A stretch of DNA of 31,363 bases from a virus: the IMG/VR virus record IMGVR_UViG_3300016667_000055, positions 1 to 31,363 of that record; one strand, given 5' to 3'. This document shows positions 3,628 to 11,092 of this stretch, one piece after another. A program made the position numbers and the translations under genes. Numbering within the stretch: position 1 is the first letter of the stretch; every line of letters starts with the position of its first letter. The notes under the pieces were generated by a model. That model was not told the origin of the DNA and searched no databases. It was given only the letters and a program-made list of their open reading frames with translations.

Positions 3628-4394
3628 ATTCAAAAGTAATTTTATTTGATGCTGATAGTCTTCTTTATCAATCAGTTTATAAAGTAATTACGTTTTCTGA
3701 AATTCGTGAAATGATTGAAGAAGGTAGATTAAGATTTGAAATAGAAATGGAGATACTTCAACGTGCTTATGATAGATTTGAGAAAATAACATTTGATATT
3801 CTAAATGAAATTGAAGAACATTTTACAATAAATAAGACAATGTTTTTCTTTACTAAGTGTAAAAACAATTTCAGAAAAGAAATATATCATTTGTATAAAG
3901 CCAATAGAAAAACACGAAATAAATGGGTAAATGAACTTCGTAACTATATGCTTCAATTTTTAGAAAATTCTTTTGCTCACGATGTTTATGAAGCTGATGA
4001 CTTAATTTATTACAACGCTCAATTATTAAACGTAGAAGATTATATTATTTGCTCAATTGATAAAGATTTAAAACAAATAGAAGGTTTACACTTTGATTAT
4101 TATCAGGAAAAAAAATACGATGATAATGGAGAAGAATATAAAGTTCGCAAAGGTTTTAAATATATGACTAAAACGGATTGTGAAAATTTACTTTGTGAAT
4201 TGCTTTTAGTTGGTGACACAAGCGATAATATCAAAGGGGTAAAAGGAATTGGAGAAATAAAGGCAAAGAAGATTATTTACTCAAAAAATTCTACTTACGG
4301 AAAGTTTAAAGCCATTTGTGAAGCATATAAAAGCGAATCTGAAATATGGAAGGAAAAGTTAAGAATGAATTATAAACTATTAAAATTTCAATAA
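3624..4394 (+). CDS. 5'-3' exonuclease / flap endonuclease (FEN, RNase H-like)
   Basis: FDADSLLY, YKANRK, EADDLI, IDKDL and the H3TH-like GDTSDNIKGVKGIGEIKAKK motif are present. Confidence 0.8.
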   Translation: MNSKVILFDADSLLYQSVYKVITFSEIREMIEEGRLRFEIEMEILQRAYDRFEKITFDILNEIEEHFTINKTMFFFTKCKNNFRKEIYHLYKANRKTRNKWVNELRNYMLQFLENSFAHDVYEADDLIYYNAQLLNVEDYIICSIDKDLKQIEGLHFDYYQEKKYDDNGEEYKVRKGFKYMTKTDCENLLCELLLVGDTSDNIKGVKGIGEIKAKKIIYSKNSTYGKFKAICEAYKSESEIWKEKLRMNYKLLKFQ

Positions 4395-4492
4395 TGAATA
4401 AAATGGCAAAAGACGAAGAAATAATCGAAAAGATTAAACAACGAGTTGAAGAATGTAGAGAGTATTATAACGATTTAATAAAAAACTTATGA
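4394..4492 (+). CDS. Small hypothetical protein (32 aa), hand-found
   Basis: ATG overlaps the upstream stop (TAATG) and its TGA overlaps the next ATG (ATGA). It exactly fills the gap between neighbouring genes. Confidence 0.4.
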   Translation: MNKMAKDEEIIEKIKQRVEECREYYNDLIKNL

Positions 4493-4701
4493 AACAGACA
4501 GCAGTAGAATGGTTAATTGAGCAACTTACGGAAATACATCCAAAGGCATTTGAACAAGCCAAAGCAATGGAGAAGGAGCAGATAATGTCTGCAAGAGAAG
4601 ATGGTCATTTATCTACCTATGCAGAATATGGTTCAACTCCTAAATGTTACTTAGATGGAGGACATGAACAATACTACAACGAAACCTTTAAATCAGAATA
4701 A
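4489..4701 (+). CDS. Hypothetical protein (paralog of 30163..30399)
   Basis: AVEWLIEQL...QAKAMEKEQI...YYNETF pattern is shared with the 30163 ORF. Confidence 0.55.
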   Translation: MKQTAVEWLIEQLTEIHPKAFEQAKAMEKEQIMSAREDGHLSTYAEYGSTPKCYLDGGHEQYYNETFKSE

Positions 4702-4702
4702 G

Positions 4703-4864
4703 ATGAAAACTATAATAAGCAGATTAACAATGAAGGTCAAACGACATTTATTTTGTGACCATATAAGCGGTGAAGGAGTCTTTTTGTATGAAGACAAATA
4801 TGGGCAAGAATGGATGGCAAACTACCCATTTAGGATTTGGTCTTTTAGAGTAAAAAGTAATTAA
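4703..4864 (+). CDS. Small hypothetical protein (53 aa)
   Basis: The ATG at 4703 follows junction repeat copy 1. The track start at 4655 would overlap the upstream gene by 47 nt. Confidence 0.5.
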   Translation: MKTIISRLTMKVKRHLFCDHISGEGVFLYEDKYGQEWMANYPFRIWSFRVKSN

Positions 4865-4882
4865 CATTTAAATCAGAATAAG

Positions 4883-5002
4883 ATGGAAACAACTTTAATT
4901 ATTGAAGCAAAAATGACAGATGAACAATTAGAAGTTCTTGTATCTGAAATAAAAAAAATTTCAGAAATAATTGGAATTGAATTAACCTTTAAATCAGAAT
5001 AA
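4883..5002 (+). CDS. Small hypothetical protein (39 aa), hand-found
   Basis: The ATG is supplied by junction repeat copy 2. It ends TFKSE-TAA inside copy 3, the same C-terminus as ORF 4489..4701. Confidence 0.45.
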   Translation: METTLIIEAKMTDEQLEVLVSEIKKISEIIGIELTFKSE

Positions 5003-5003
5003 G

Positions 5004-5189
5004 ATGAATGAACTAAAACTAATGGGTTACTATATTAATTGCACCCGAACTGACCAAGTCGTACAAATTAAAGACTTACAACGTGGGCGCGTATGGTACG
5101 AAGTAATCAGGCAACACGACAGAAACACGATTACAGATTTTTGCTGTACGGAACAAAGATTTAAGAACCTATATATTCAAAAGAAATGA
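5004..5189 (+). CDS. Hypothetical protein
   Basis: ORF track; the ATG is supplied by junction repeat copy 3. Confidence 0.5.
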   Translation: MNELKLMGYYINCTRTDQVVQIKDLQRGRVWYEVIRQHDRNTITDFCCTEQRFKNLYIQKK

Positions 5190-5371
5190 AAGATAGCATC
5201 GTTGAATCAGTGATAAACAAGTTTAAAGACCGTTCTAACGTAGGAATACAGAAATACGGAACAACACTAGACAGAAATGATTTAACGCACTTAGAATGGA
5301 TAAATCACGCACAAGAAGAAGCAATGGATTTTATCCTGTATTTAGAAAAATTAAAACAAATAAATAAATAA
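5186..5371 (+). CDS. Hypothetical protein (possibly like a small MazG/dNTP-pyrophosphohydrolase N-domain)
   Basis: KYGTTLDRNDL..W..HAQEEAMDFILYL pattern; weak recognition only. Confidence 0.4.
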   Translation: MKDSIVESVINKFKDRSNVGIQKYGTTLDRNDLTHLEWINHAQEEAMDFILYLEKLKQINK

Positions 5372-5373
5372 AA

Positions 5374-5604
5374 ATGGAAAAGAGAGACAACAGCGGTGTA
5401 TTGTTCACTAACGACAAAAGACAAAAAGAAACACACGCACACTATCAAGGTAAGGCAACAATCAATGGAGTTGAGTATTACGTTTCAAGTTGGGTAAAAG
5501 ACGGAGCAAAAGGTAAATATCAAAGTCTAAGTTTCAAACCAGTTCAAGAAACAGCGAAACAACCTCAAAAGAGCGGATTTGATGACTTTTTAAATGGCTT
5601 ATGA
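5374..5604 (+). CDS. Hypothetical protein
   Basis: ORF track; tightly coupled to its neighbours. Confidence 0.5.
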   Translation: MEKRDNSGVLFTNDKRQKETHAHYQGKATINGVEYYVSSWVKDGAKGKYQSLSFKPVQETAKQPQKSGFDDFLNGL

Positions 5605-5804
5605 TAGAATCACACGTATTAAGCAATATAAACGATATAACGCGGAATTTAATTAATGTATATATTCAAAAACACGGAATAACATTAAACGCATTTTCTA
5701 AGTTAGTCGGAATTAGACAACCTATATTATTCAAGTTTATGAACTACCAAAATAATATGAGTACAAAAACGATTGAAAAAATAGGTAAATTTTTTAACAA
5801 TTAA
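5601..5804 (+). CDS. Small HTH DNA-binding protein (XRE-like)
   Basis: ITLNAFSKLVGIRQPILFKFMN...STKTIEKIGKFF resembles helix-turn-helix. Confidence 0.45.
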   Translation: MIESHVLSNINDITRNLINVYIQKHGITLNAFSKLVGIRQPILFKFMNYQNNMSTKTIEKIGKFFNN

Positions 5805-5883
5805 GGCTCTGGTAAACCAACAGAAAGATCGCTATGGTTAAAGGATTGTAAAACACGGTCGCCCACACTTAGCGGTTATTTTC

Positions 5884-5915
5884 AGAGGGAACGTAAAAAA
5901 TTCCCTCTTTTTTTT
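5884..5915 (+). terminator. Intrinsic terminator
   Basis: AGAGGGA (5884-5890) pairs with TCCCTCT (5902-5908), followed by a T8 run. Confidence 0.7.
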
Positions 5916-5944
5916 GTTATATATTATTCTTTTTAGTATATTTG
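5914..5944 (+). promoter_or_regulatory. Promoter (TTG -33-like element plus TATATTTG -7 box at 5937-5944)
   Basis: TTGTTAT...TATTC...TATATTTGT...AAATTAAAC. Same family as the promoters at 3060 and 29801. Confidence 0.55.
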
Positions 5945-5966
5945 TATAAAATTAAACTTAGAAATT

Positions 5967-6305
5967 ATGAAAGATTTATTTTACAGCTGCCCTGAATGCG
6001 ATGGGTGGGGATTCGTAACTATTGATTTGAACGATACGATTATTCCGTACGAACAAAACCCTATTGACTATGAATGCATGGCATGTAGTGGCAAAGGAAA
6101 GGTACTACATGAAGACGAATACCAAATGAAACTAGATGGTGTTACAGAAATGATTGAGGGAATGAAAACACGGATTGAAGGACTTTCACGAATAGTAATG
6201 AAGAGTGAAAACCCTGATTTATACATTGAGCGATTAAAAACTTTATCCTGTGGTTTATACCGATTAGAACAATATAAACGAAAATTGCTTAAATTAGCAT
6301 GGTGA
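5967..6305 (+). CDS. Zinc-finger protein (DnaJ-type CxxCxGxG motifs)
   Basis: CPECDGWG and CMACSGKG motifs. Confidence 0.5.
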   Translation: MKDLFYSCPECDGWGFVTIDLNDTIIPYEQNPIDYECMACSGKGKVLHEDEYQMKLDGVTEMIEGMKTRIEGLSRIVMKSENPDLYIERLKTLSCGLYRLEQYKRKLLKLAW

Positions 6306-8354: not shown

Positions 8355-8676
8355 ATTTTTCCCTAACTTACATAGAAGTTGTATAAGGTTGAACTTCACA
8401 AAAACAACCGCTCGAAATAAATGCTTGTTATAAAATCCCGCAATGTTTTTGCTTAACAACGGGTACTGCATACCGAAAGGTTATAAAAACAAGTGAACCA
8501 AAATGCCAAGTGTGAAAACACGAATAAATAAGAAGTGGTCGCAGAGGGAAGTGTTATTATCGGGCTAACCTTATATTAGGTTAAAATACTGCAAGTTGGT
8601 ATATGCAGTATAAAAGCGAAGCTATAACCAAGAATAAAAAAAAAGGTTTAAATTTACCAAAAACACGAATTAAATC

Positions 8677-9105
8677 ATGGCAAAAAGAGGTAGACCAAGA
8701 AATTTAGATAGTCCAGAACAATTATACGAACTATTTGAAAAATATAAAGCCAACGTAAAGGCGAATCCAAGACTAAAAATAATACACGGGGGTAAAGACT
8801 TCGAAGAAAGAGTAGAACCATTAGAATGCCCTCTAACTATGGAGGGTTTTGAAATTTATTGCTGGGATGAGGTAGGTGAAGTAGAACAATATTTTAAAAA
8901 CGTTGATAAAAGATATTCAGAATATATCCCTATCTGTTCACGTATACGCAAAGAAATACGTCAAGACCAAATAACAGGCGGTATGGTAGGACAGTATAAC
9001 GCAAGTATTACACAACGCTTAAACAACCTAAAAGAACAAGTGGAACAAACGAATATTGAACAACCGTTATTTAAACTAGATGATAATAACGACAGCAATT
9101 CGTAA
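8677..9105 (+). CDS. terS: Terminase small subunit
   Basis: N-terminus MAKRGRPRNLDSPEQLYELFEKYK is typical of terS. It lies immediately upstream of terL sequences. Confidence 0.7.
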   Translation: MAKRGRPRNLDSPEQLYELFEKYKANVKANPRLKIIHGGKDFEERVEPLECPLTMEGFEIYCWDEVGEVEQYFKNVDKRYSEYIPICSRIRKEIRQDQITGGMVGQYNASITQRLNNLKEQVEQTNIEQPLFKLDDNNDSNS

Positions 9106-9157
9106 AATAAACGCTTTAAAAAAACGAATCAAAATAATACAACAAGGGTGTTGTTAA
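9080..9157 (+). pseudogene. Truncated 5' remnant of terL (copy 1; 25 codons then stop)
   Basis: Encodes MIITTAIRKINALKKRIKIIQQGCC-stop. The first 23 residues are nearly identical to the peptide encoded from 9726, and the copy is truncated where the P-loop should start. Confidence 0.7.
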
Positions 9158-9184
9158 TATAAAAAACTTTCGTATATTTGTGTT

Positions 9185-9757
9185 ATGGAAATATGGCAAC
9201 AAATAAAAGGATTTGAAAACTTATATAAGATTTCTACCTACGGAAGAATTAAAAGTTTGGGAAATGGTAAAAGCACTAATTCTAAAACAAAATTTGAAAG
9301 GATTTTGAAAAGCAATTATTCTTCAACTGGATATGAAAAGATAAAACTTTTCAAAGACGGCAAAAGATATTATTTTTCAGTTCATAGATTAGTAGCTCAA
9401 ACTTTTTTATCAAACGATAAAAACAAAAAAGAAGTTAATCATAAAGACGGAAATAAAGCAAATAATAATGTGTCTAATTTGGAATGGGTAACTTCAAGTG
9501 AAAATCAATTACACGCTTTTAAAAACGGATTGCAAAAGAGCAAAATGGGTAAAGACCATATTCAGTCTAAAAGTGTAAGGCAATTAGATTTAAATGGAAA
9601 TGTAATTCGTACATTTGAAAGCATTAAACAAGTTCAAAGAGAATTAGGATTTAATACATTTGGAATAATTAAGTGTTGTAAAAAAGTAAAAAAATACAAT
9701 ACTGCGTATAAATTTAAATGGGAATATGATAATAACAAGTGCTATACGGAAGATTAA
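9185..9757 (+). CDS. HNH homing endonuclease (NUMOD4 / HNH_3 / C-terminal DNA-binding module, I-HmuI-like)
   Basis: EIWQQIKGFENLYKISTYGRIKS; HRLVAQTFL...VNHKDGNKANNNVSNLEWVTSSENQLHA. It is inserted within terL sequence. Confidence 0.85.
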   Translation: MEIWQQIKGFENLYKISTYGRIKSLGNGKSTNSKTKFERILKSNYSSTGYEKIKLFKDGKRYYFSVHRLVAQTFLSNDKNKKEVNHKDGNKANNNVSNLEWVTSSENQLHAFKNGLQKSKMGKDHIQSKSVRQLDLNGNVIRTFESIKQVQRELGFNTFGIIKCCKKVKKYNTAYKFKWEYDNNKCYTED

Positions 9758-10925
9758 CGCCTTAAAGAAACGGATTAAGATAATCCAAGGCGGTACTTCC
9801 GCTATTTAACCCCCTATGAATTAAGTAGTAGGGGGTGACAATGCAGGAAAAACTTATGGTATACTTCCTATACTAATCACAAAGGCTGCTACATATCCAC
9901 GAATGGAAATAAGCGTAGTTGCTGAATCAATACCTCATTTGCGTAGAGGTGCGTTAAAAGACTTTCTAAAAATAATGAAAGAAACGGGGCGCTACTTTGA
10001 TGAACGGTTTAATAAGTCACTTTTAAGATATGAGTTTGCAAATGGTTCTGTAATAGAGTTTTTTAGTGCTGATGACAGTTCTAAATTAAGGGGTGCAAGG
10101 CGTGATGTACTGTACATAAACGAATGTAACAACGTAACCTTTGAATCTTACAACGAACTTGCAATACGTACAAAGAAAGAAGTCTATTTAGACTTTAACC
10201 CAGCAAATGAATTTTGGGTGCATACGGAACTAAAAGACGAACCCGATAGCGACTTTCTTATTTTAACCTATAAAGACAATGAAGCTTTAGATAATAGTAT
10301 TGTTCAACAAATAGAAAAAAATCGCTTAAAAGCCGAAACAAGCGCATACTGGAGTAACTGGTGGCGTGTTTATGGATTAGGTGAAATAGGAATGCTTGAG
10401 GGCGTTATATTCAGCAACTGGAAAATAATTGACAAGCTACCAACCGAAGCTAAGTTAATAGGAATCGGTTTAGACTTCGGATATACAAATGACCCGACTG
10501 CAATAATTGAAGTTTACAATTATAACGGAACACGGATACTCAATGAATTAAAGTATCAAACAGGAATGTTAAATTCAGACATCGCAAAAATACTACCAAA
10601 AAACGTGGTGGTATATGCAGATAGTTCCGAGCCTAAATCAATAGATGAAATAAGACGCTATGGAATAACGATTAAAGGCGTTACAAAGGGCAAAGACAGT
10701 ATTAATTATGGAATTGATGTAATACAACAACAAGAATATTTAGTAACCTCACAAAGCGTTAATTTTATTAAAGAACTTAGAGCATACTGTTGGGATGTAG
10801 ATAAACACGGAACACGCTTAAACAAACCTATCGACAATAATAACCACGGAATAGACGCATGGCGTTATCATGAAATGGAAACACTAGGTTTAAAACGCAA
10901 TTACGGAACATATAATATACGTTAA
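9726..10925 (+). CDS. terL: Terminase large subunit, reading frame interrupted by two in-frame TAA codons (9807, 9822) inside the Walker A region
   Basis: The same frame encodes MIITSAIRKINALKKRIKIIQGGTSAI*PPMN*VVGGDNAGKTYGILPIL...GARRDVLYINECNN...NPANEFWV, which follows the PBSX/Terminase_3-like pattern. No start codon lies between the second stop and the GKT codons. Confidence 0.75.
9795..9836 (+). other. 42-nt intervening cassette in the terL P-loop (hairpin plus two stops); exact boundaries ambiguous within the flanking GGN GGT repeat
   Basis: Hairpin CCCCCTA (9810-9816) / TAGGGGG (9829-9835). It is flanked by GGCGGT (9789-9794) and GGGGGT (9831-9836), which are 42 nt apart. Confidence 0.6.
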
Positions 10926-11092
10926 TGACAGACGACACAGCGGTAATGACCAAAGAAGTTGAGTATTATGTGTATATTCGTACAGGAAAACGAATTAAAA
11001 TAGTTTTCAATGATTCAATGAACCTGAGAAAGCATTTAGTAATGCTAGGTGAAGCATATAATATCGCTTATAACTACAATAAATCAAAATAA
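10925..11092 (+). CDS. Small hypothetical protein (55 aa), hand-found
   Basis: TAATG overlap with the terL stop; open to TAA 11090-11092. Confidence 0.4.
   Translation: MTDDTAVMTKEVEYYVYIRTGKRIKIVFNDSMNLRKHLVMLGEAYNIAYNYNKSK

Follow-up and report, generated by a model that had tools for sequence, protein, structure and literature searches.

Organization of the interrupted terL locus

The DNA analysed here is a 31,363-nucleotide (nt) stretch of a viral genome (IMG/VR record IMGVR_UViG_3300016667_000055, positions 1 to 31,363; hereafter the window), in which the large terminase gene, terL, is interrupted within the codons of its Walker A motif (P-loop) by a 42-nt gap. The terL frame opens at ATG 9726 and encodes MIITSAIRKINALKKRIKIIQGGTSA (codons 1–26), followed by Ile-TAA (9807–9809), the residues PPMN, and a second TAA (9822–9824). 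Continuous translation of 9726–10928 reads MIITSAIRKINALKKRIKIIQGGTSAI-stop-PPMN-stop-VVGGDNAGKTYGILP..., with no further stop until TAA 10923–10925; in the same frame, the stretch from the second stop to the proposed landing codon reads VVGGDNA and is followed by GKT. The split gene had been noticed in a preliminary description of the window made from the letters alone, and translation confirmed the frame and both of its in-frame stops. The Walker B-like DVLYINEC reported there to lie downstream was located at 10104–10127, and the open reading frame (ORF) 9825–10925 was assigned by Pfam to Terminase_3, Terminase_3C, and Terminase_6N. The features of the interrupted gene, including the codons at which a ribosome is proposed to leave and rejoin the message and their frequencies among 20 natural variants of the gap (described below), are as follows.

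9726..9803, plus strand: terL ORF1, the second copy of a duplicated terL 5′ end (copy 2), codons 1–26 (MIITSAIRKINALKKRIKIIQGGTSA), ending at the take-off codon; from translation
9801..9803, plus strand: proposed take-off codon GCT (Ala26); GCT in 19/20 variants and GCC in 1/20, always 6 nt before the hairpin
9804..9845, plus strand: 42-nt coding gap, composed of linker ATTTAA, 26-nt hairpin, spacer TGACAAT, and landing codon GCA
9807..9809, plus strand: first in-frame stop, TAA; present in just 4/20 variants
9810..9835, plus strand: conserved hairpin CCCCCTA-TGAATTAAGTAG-TAGGGGG, with the in-frame TAA 9822–9824 in its loop
9831..9842, plus strand: Shine-Dalgarno (SD)-like G-rich 3′ arm and purine-rich spacer (GGGGGTGACAAT) before the landing codon
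9843..9845, plus strand: proposed landing codon GCA (Ala); GCA in 13, GCT in 5, and GCG in 2 of 20 variants
9846..10925, plus strand: terL ORF2 (GKTYGILP... to the stop), with the Walker B-like motif and the nuclease domain; Pfam Terminase_3/3C/6N

The preliminary description had further held that no start codon precedes the GKT codons and that this is the only terminase ATPase of the genome. Between 9825 and GKT (9846–9854), there is indeed no in-frame ATG, GTG, or TTG, the sole nearby ATG (9841) being out of frame, and a scan of ten further ORFs, comprising nine of the largest and a second HNH ORF, revealed no second terminase. No tRNA or suppressor tRNA genes were found in the window. There was no sign of an alternative genetic code, and other genes end in TAA.

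Removal of the gap restores a conserved TerL

Deletion of the 42 nt at 9804–9845 yields a protein of 385 amino acids (aa) with the Walker A motif GGTSAGKT, in agreement with the earlier proposal that a 42-nt skip would restore a canonical P-loop and a TerL of approximately 385 residues. When this protein was used as the query, the best 120 homologues were 88–97% identical to it and nearly all exactly 385 aa long, and 110 of these 120 contained the P-loop region IIQGGTSAGKTYGI. The gap is missing from more than 100 intact 385-aa homologues (IIQGGTSAGKT), and this alignment, a comparison with insert-free relatives that the preliminary description had suggested, showed terL to be uninterrupted at the site. 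It is also missing from the closest intact genome (L130), which has a 97% identical TerL and no HNH gene and reads ...CAAGGCGGAACTTCAGCTGGGAAAACTTAC... across the gap site. The window gene corresponds to an intact gene in which 42 extra nt separate Ala26 from Gly27.

Two 42-nt hops had originally been put forward. The hop from GCT 9801 to GCA 9843 gives the conserved sequence. The hop from GGT 9792 to GGT 9834 would give GGDNAGKT, which is found in no homologue, and it fails in the out-of-frame variants described below; we therefore rejected it. The GGDNA that had been taken for a second half P-loop is incidental, as other variants show a stop or a different frame at this place.

The gap recurs at one terL position in wild relatives

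The exact 26-mer hairpin sequence was found in 14 IMG/VR contigs, always at this terL position, and chance origin of the hairpin is thereby excluded. Looser patterns and one metagenome scan extended the set to 20 distinct flank variants, all of which are in terL at the same Walker A site and which come from many metagenomes. One pattern, ACTTCNGCTNNTTTNCCCCC, was ill-fitted to the main clade, yet it retrieved variants with compensatory stem changes. Other matches to short sub-patterns were attributed to chance, including the sole match in a genome contig (L129, a Planctomycetales chromosome), which lies inside an ordinary ORF and gives no host. The hairpin sequence occurs 14 times exactly, and further times nearly so, in independent collections, which rules against an assembly error, an alternative raised in the preliminary description, or a one-off defect: the insert is widespread in natural phage genomes.

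Comparison of the 20 variants revealed that (i) all have a common layout, namely an Ala codon, exactly 6 U-rich nt, the 26-nt hairpin, 7–10 purine-rich nt, and a second Ala codon; (ii) this second Ala codon directly precedes GGN or TCG and then AAR ACN, or, in a second TerL family (see below), GGT GGT GGT AAA TCC; (iii) the second Ala codon differs only in its third base (GCA, GCT, or GCG); (iv) 14 variants have a displacement of 42 nt, and the others one of 43 nt (L009, L023, and L033), 44 nt (L003 and L127), or 45 nt (L021); and (v) the loop TAA is in frame in every variant, and a stop stands right after Ile in just 4, so that the adjacent stop formerly proposed as a signal is not conserved. 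Gap-bearing genes always have TCC-GCT at Ser25-Ala26; intact genes have AGT or TCN and GCG, GCT, or GCA.

The coding sequence beyond the gap is well preserved. The contigs of 14 variants extend to the terL stop; counted from the landing codon, ORF2 measures exactly 360 aa in 12 of them, 358 aa in L021, and 147 aa in L003. The two halves of the gene are out of frame in L009 and L003 (by tblastn) and in L127 (from its 44-nt count), and in L009 and L127 the downstream ORF is still an intact 360 aa. In L003 (IMGVR_UViG_3300020043_003628), where the post-gap ORF ends after 147 aa, the C-terminal third of TerL lies on the opposite strand at the contig end, which may represent a rearrangement, a second insertion, or a misassembly.

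These displacements bear on stop readthrough, or a tolerated 14-aa insertion, which the window by itself might suggest in that its gap length is divisible by three. Gaps of 43 and 44 nt are incompatible with readthrough, which would also have to suppress two or three stops (an extra TGA is present in L034, for example) and would place 14 residues into Walker A. Because the gap puts its flanks into different frames in five lineages, readthrough is excluded, and only an exact Ala-to-Ala join gives the conserved Walker A.

A hairpin with compensatory changes and an invariant loop

The CCCCCTA/TAGGGGG stem pointed out in the preliminary description proved to be longer than stated there, extending to 9 base pairs, 9809–9817 with 9828–9836 (closing pair 9809/9836). 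The 26-mer alone folds at −12.4 kcal/mol, and the 91-nt fold by itself is unexceptional (z = −1.84). In the stem alignment, 96% of cells are paired and double changes occur at two pairs. The inner A-U pair is changed to G-C in L119, L125, and L127 and to U·G in L128, and the pair that closes the stem beyond the C5/G5 clamp varies among U-A, A-U, G-C, C-G, and U·G. The observed covariation was reached by 0 of 500 shuffles, and slid controls collapse. The hairpin loop, GAAUUAAGUA(G), is identical in all variants; since patterns without a specified loop retrieved the same loop, ascertainment is not the full explanation of this identity. The flanks were inspected by eye for a pseudoknot partner of the invariant loop, and nothing conserved was seen.

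Two alternative folds can be drawn for the region. The first is a 5′ stem-loop formed by the P-loop codons (GGGCGGAA/UUCCGCUC), with the take-off codon inside it. The second contains a lower helix of UUCCGC with GC(N)GGAA, and the MFKRT clade additionally pairs the U-rich linker with the purine-rich spacer. The second fold would bring the take-off and landing codons together; both are modelled structures and are offered as hypotheses. In L034, L119, L009, and L127, predicted pairing continues across the U-rich linker and the purine-rich spacer as far as the GC of both Ala codons, which is not the case in the clade of the window.

In all variants, because the 6-nt linker is fixed in length, the first hairpin arm is read in frame as Pro-Pro (CCC CCU), after which come Met, Val, Leu, or Thr, then Asn and the stop. 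Ribosomes that did not hop would meet this diprolyl motif and then the loop UAA (9810–9824 in the window).

The same module in a second TerL family

One variant, L128, has the same module, with the U·G stem variant, in a TerL of the 433-aa type that is 21% identical to the window TerL. Immediately upstream of the module is a homologous HNH gene, with 43% identity over the nuclease core. Intact homologues of this family 2 read LYGGAAGGGKS in 120 of 120 cases, and a GCC-to-GCA join in L128 restores exactly GGAAGGGKS. Thus, in both TerL families the gap interrupts the ORF and an exact join restores the conserved protein. The N-terminal peptide of L128, MQLLTKQEHATYYLNDSSTEEVLYGGAA, is unrelated to that of the window, and the nascent peptides of the two families (26–28 aa) share just their GG-x-x-A end. 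The basic nascent peptide that the preliminary description had listed among the signals is not common to the second TerL family.

The HNH gene and the duplicated terL 5′ end

Upstream of the interrupted frame, the window contains the following features.

8677..9105, plus strand: terS, small terminase (GP3_package, PF16677, E = 9e-8), the last 26 nt of which overlap the native terL start
9080..9157, plus strand: copy 1, a stranded native terL 5′ fragment (MIITTAIRKINALKKRIKIIQQGCC and a stop); from the direct repeat and translation
9185..9757, plus strand: I-HmuI-like HNH homing endonuclease gene, whose 3′ end overlaps the start of copy 2 in another frame

The ORF at 9185–9757 encodes a 190-aa protein (PHROG 59) with NUMOD4, HNH_3, and NUMOD1 domains and a full-length match to I-HmuI (PDB 1U3E, E = 2.6e-17), which bears out the earlier reading of this gene as an HNH homing endonuclease beside the gap. 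No record of the exact protein from the window was found. The gene has both the HNH architecture and the sporadic presence among close relatives that mark an I-HmuI-like homing endonuclease gene.

A duplication of the terL 5′ end had been overlooked in the preliminary description: 9080–9142 and 9726–9788 are 78% identical at the nucleotide level, and both begin ATGATAATAAC. Copy 1 overlaps the end of terS as the true terL start does in intact relatives (L130). Because copy 1 has just 2 mismatches to L130 over the first 62 nt and copy 2 is 81% identical to it over the first 69 nt, we designate copy 1 the resident 5′ end and copy 2 the foreign one. Copy 1 ceases to match intact terL at about 9141, the left junction of the cassette. 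From these alignments, the inserted block is read as approximately 9142–9845, made up of a short leader, the HNH gene, replacement terL codons 1–26, and the 42-nt gap. Remnants of copy 1 are present upstream of the HNH gene in L012, L037, L034, and L125. As a 25-codon ORF with its original start context inside terS, copy 1 may still yield a short basic peptide.

I-HmuI-type enzymes are classically intron-encoded, which brings a group I intron containing the HNH ORF into consideration. Yet no group I core was found in 8500–10500 at E ≤ 10, a search in which Rfam gave just two chance matches to small RNAs (sRNA/snoRNA), and the variants that have no HNH gene retain just about 42 nt. An exon join from copy 1 is impossible, since copy 1 lacks the GGTSA codons. 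A split TerL made by internal re-initiation is countered by the absence of an in-frame start before GKT, and a P-loop divided over two chains would not function. We assign an intron, stop readthrough, and re-initiation together a negligible probability; the computational comparisons already refute the intron and readthrough.

Eleven of the 20 variants have the HNH gene: 8 were detected by tblastn at an offset of −625/−628 from the hairpin, L125 and L127 by their flanks, and L128 has a 176-aa HNH ORF abutting terL. It is absent from the other 9, several of which have terS abutting terL as in intact phages. Among MII-type gap genes, identity over the 5′ 78 nt is 91.3% within the group and just 75.8% to intact genes, and the next 600 nt of terL are about 80% identical in all comparisons, gap-bearing and intact; the 5′ 78-nt segment therefore travels with the gap. 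The HNH-less L004 and L007 retain codons that overlap the C-terminus of the HNH gene, and L010, L005, and L001 resemble recombinants of copy 1 and copy 2. This pattern fits recombination of one repeat with the other as the route by which the endonuclease was lost.

Homing endonuclease cassettes are selfish elements, and intact relatives are far commoner than gap-bearing ones (65 of 70 sampled loci). Both facts would accord with selfish damage, in which the cassette has inactivated terL and defective genomes persist via homing drive and co-infecting intact relatives. We consider this very unlikely: 20 diverged variants in two TerL families have kept the Ala...Ala geometry even where the spacer length has changed, compensatory stem changes, and, by our count, intact downstream ORFs of exact length, and HNH-less variants persist without a drive, near-complete contigs of about 30–31 kb among them.

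Other genes of interest were observed around this junction and elsewhere in the window. In L076 and L095 (approximately 2026–2508), a distant HNH gene (40% identity) lies directly upstream of an uninterrupted terL with the P-loop GGTAASKT, which may be a naturally resistant target variant. In some relatives, a gene for a DNA methyltransferase of 211–215 aa (DPPY motif) is inserted between terS and terL (L005, 6933–7580; L012, 1330–1965), in L012 upstream of the HNH cassette; we therefore regard the terS/terL junction as an insertion hot spot. A second homing-endonuclease-like gene with NUMOD4, HNH_3, and AP2 domains is located at 1804–2277 of the window (plus strand), and its product is 39% identical to the terL-associated HNH protein over 115 aa.

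Programmed translational bypassing as the probable explanation

The suggestion that an endonuclease-plus-bypass cassette sits in the terL P-loop is supported by the comparative evidence, namely recurrence, co-transfer, covariation, and the exact join. We consider programmed translational bypassing within a homing-endonuclease cassette to be the best explanation of the gap and a probable one. Bypassing is favoured because terL is essential and neither an alternative terminase among the large ORFs scanned nor a suppressor was found.

In the mechanism that we propose, a mobile cassette (about 9142–9845) would have entered terL within its Walker A codons. What is left of the native 5′ end of the gene would be a dead ORF of 25 codons, from which terS still takes its 3′ end. 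The full-length 385-aa TerL would begin at the cassette start codon 9726; the ribosome would decode up to Ala26 (GCU 9801–9803), skip the gap, land at GCA 9843–9845, and resume decoding at GGA AAA ACU (GKT), and non-hopping ribosomes would terminate at one of the two stops, TAA 9807 and the loop TAA 9822. In the DNA, the gap splits the conserved P-loop sequence, the presumed target of the endonuclease, so that cassette carriers would be immune and intact alleles would be cut and converted. Recombination of copy 1 with copy 2 would then delete the HNH gene and leave the gap. We infer the cutting and immunity from the position of the gap in conserved P-loop DNA and from the co-conversion of the 5′ 78 nt; the skipping on the ribosome and the mechanics of take-off and landing are likewise deduced.

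The codons at the two ends of the gap are in keeping with bypassing. They are synonymous Ala codons in all 20 variants, and all of them should be readable by tRNA-Ala(UGC). Most variants have GAG or GGNGA 5–6 nt before the landing codon (GGGGGAGA or GGGGGUGA). A take-off at the Asn codon (AAU) at the loop stop, with landing at AAU/AAC, was also considered, as AAU/AAC precedes the landing codon in many variants; it was rejected on account of the earlier stop in the window and three variants, the 6–7 residues that it would add to Walker A, and the lack of the codon in several variants.

The same exact join could be made in RNA. If 42–45 nt were removed from the terL mRNA before ordinary translation, for example by cuts at the hairpin base and RtcB-type ligation or by a small ribozyme activity, the exactness of the join, its independence of frame, and the conserved hairpin with its invariant loop would be equally accounted for, and no stop or rare codon after the take-off codon would be needed. 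Rfam, however, identified no intron or ribozyme in 8500–10500, and we know of no bacterial or phage mRNA intron of 42–45 nt. Excision also gives no reason why every gap still ends in an Ala codon with a free third base: such a third-base-variable second codon is predicted by codon-anticodon re-pairing and is superfluous for simple excision. We therefore judge RNA-level excision unlikely.

Several observations weigh against bypassing. (i) Take-off and landing codons are identical in just 5 of the 20 variants, and L128 pairs GCC with GCA. (ii) The codon 3′ of the take-off codon is AUU, CUU, UUU, UAU, UCU, UGU, or UAC in the 20 variants and never a stop; AUU, CUU, UUU, and UAU are used at 13–34 per 1000 in this phage, CUU being mid-range and the others among the commonest. 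(iii) The conserved hairpin starts 6 nt past the take-off codon, which lies outside its stem. A spacing of 6 nt, with GCU in the A site before translocation, is typical of frameshift stimulators. (iv) A nascent-peptide signal like that of gene 60 is doubtful because the peptides of the two TerL families are unrelated. (v) SD-like leaders precede just 2 of the 38 window ORFs, and an SD-like landing aid may not work in the host. (vi) A single G in a G-run separates L003 from L021 and, likewise, L033 from its relatives; these differences may be sequencing errors. The frame shifts of L009, L023, and L127, as they stand in the alignments, are not explicable by such an error.

These observations can be combined into a more specific model, which we advance as a possibility short of even confidence. 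The 26-nt hairpin CCCCCUA-UGAAUUAAGUAG-UAGGGGG, set exactly 6 nt past an Ala codon, may be a portable bypass module that is sufficient in itself and that, in an SD-independent host of the Bacteroidota type, would direct a 42–45-nt hop without an A-site stop, a hungry codon, or a dedicated nascent-peptide signal. It would represent a second invention of high-efficiency bypassing, distinct in mechanism, spread by I-HmuI-like endonucleases into Walker A of at least two unrelated terminase families.

Comparison with known bypassing and homing systems

The 50-nt gap of T4 gene 60 reportedly forms a cassette with the HNH homing endonuclease MobA, as Bonocora et al. are said to have described in 2011. 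The terL element resembles this system in that (i) an HNH gene lies directly upstream of a short ORF1 (26–28 codons here and 46 in T4) that ends at the take-off codon; (ii) the gap, 42–45 nt here and 50 nt in T4, contains a stable hairpin and in-frame stops; (iii) its 3′ part is purine/AU-rich, with a GAG-like element 5–6 nt before a synonymous landing codon; (iv) it splits the presumed endonuclease target, and the endonuclease is frequently lost with the gap retained; and (v) the cassette provides a new N-terminal coding sequence for the downstream gene. The retention of the bypass after frequent loss of the endonuclease has been described for gene 60/MobA (Manning & Atkins, bioRxiv 10.1101/2022.08.31.505936), and the gene 60 cassette and its dozens of homologues are all in myovirus topoisomerase genes (bioRxiv 10.1101/2022.08.31.505936).

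By contrast, the terL gap lies in Walker A, whereas gene 60 is interrupted in the topoisomerase II large subunit (residues 466–473), and the phages concerned here have genomes of about 31 kb with 33% GC, are without SD leaders, and presumably have other hosts. Ala codons replace the Gly codons of T4, and no stop or rare codon occupies the A site at take-off. The hairpin is 6 nt downstream of the take-off codon, which the T4 hairpin contains, and has an invariant loop of 10–12 nt in place of a UUCG tetraloop. The cassette duplicates the 5′ end of the gene itself, unlike the novel C- and N-terminal extension (CTE/NTE) peptides of T4; the endonuclease is I-HmuI-like and 190 aa long, compared with about 270 aa for MobA; and the module serves two unrelated N-terminal peptide contexts. 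On the basis of its different host gene, endonuclease subfamily, codons, and signal layout, we place the terL element outside the MobA/gene 60 family: it is functionally gene 60/MobA-like and, by these features, not homologous.

The byps of Magnusiomyces capitatus mitochondria, reported by Lang et al. (2014), are likewise short inserts (27–55 nt) in essential genes of an AT-rich genome, resemble GC-cluster mobile elements, and need an exact, frame-independent join of their flanks. They differ in being numerous in a single genome of a eukaryotic organelle and in having no link to an endonuclease; a stop or rare codon follows take-off in gene 60 and in these byps, where the terL gap has a common sense codon. 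The Streptomyces phage Hau3 (PMC10732093) has a candidate bypass in its large terminase, with flanks that are contiguous in relatives. It involves two 10-nt inserts elsewhere in the gene, a rare UUA codon as the trigger, and a proposed regulatory role, and has neither a hairpin module nor a homing endonuclease (PMC10732093).

I-HmuI, free-standing HNH homing endonucleases, and MobE, whose insertion reportedly splits nrdA in phage Aeh1 (Friedrich et al. 2007), share with the terL-associated protein the endonuclease fold and domain set, a sporadic occurrence among near-identical genomes, and insertion in a conserved catalytic motif of an essential gene. Two solutions known from these systems are not available in the terL case: a self-splicing group I intron, which protects I-HmuI, and the reassembly of two polypeptides, as reported for Aeh1 nrdA. 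A full-text search of the literature found no description of a hairpin gap in terL Walker A.

Host and implications

The window has 32.7% GC, with 37 of its 38 ORFs on one strand, A-rich leaders, and an SD-like motif upstream of just 2 of the 38. No close cultured relative was found in INPHARED, the best matches being Flavobacterium phages (67% identity over 14% of the query). Since SD leaders are lacking and the only cultured relatives are Flavobacterium phages, the host is probably a member of the Bacteroidota (Flavobacterium-like), in which anti-SD pairing may be unavailable. A 1.5-kb run of small, tightly packed ORFs (39–76 aa) on the plus strand at 4394–5967, amid large ORFs, is probably an early-gene cluster.

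Automatic ORF calling cuts gap-bearing terL to products of 340–353 aa without a P-loop (for example, L005 7715–8776). Public annotations and protein databases will therefore under-represent gap-bearing alleles, and terL, the marker most used in phage phylogeny and packaging prediction, is mis-annotated in gap-bearing genomes.

For more than 30 years, efficient viral bypassing has meant essentially one lineage, gene 60 and its homologues in topoisomerase genes, with Hau3 as the only other phage candidate. The terL gap is probably a second, independent case of ribosome hopping of the gene 60 type. Its natural variation, comprising 20 alleles, four gap lengths, compensatory stem changes, and two protein contexts, could separate universal signals, for which matched codons, the hairpin, and the purine-rich landing zone are candidates, from T4-specific ones, for which the A-site stop, the nascent peptide, and SD pairing are candidates. 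If the interpretation is true, the pairing of an endonuclease with a bypass gap would be a recurrent evolutionary solution, reached in another essential gene, in other phages, and probably in another host phylum.

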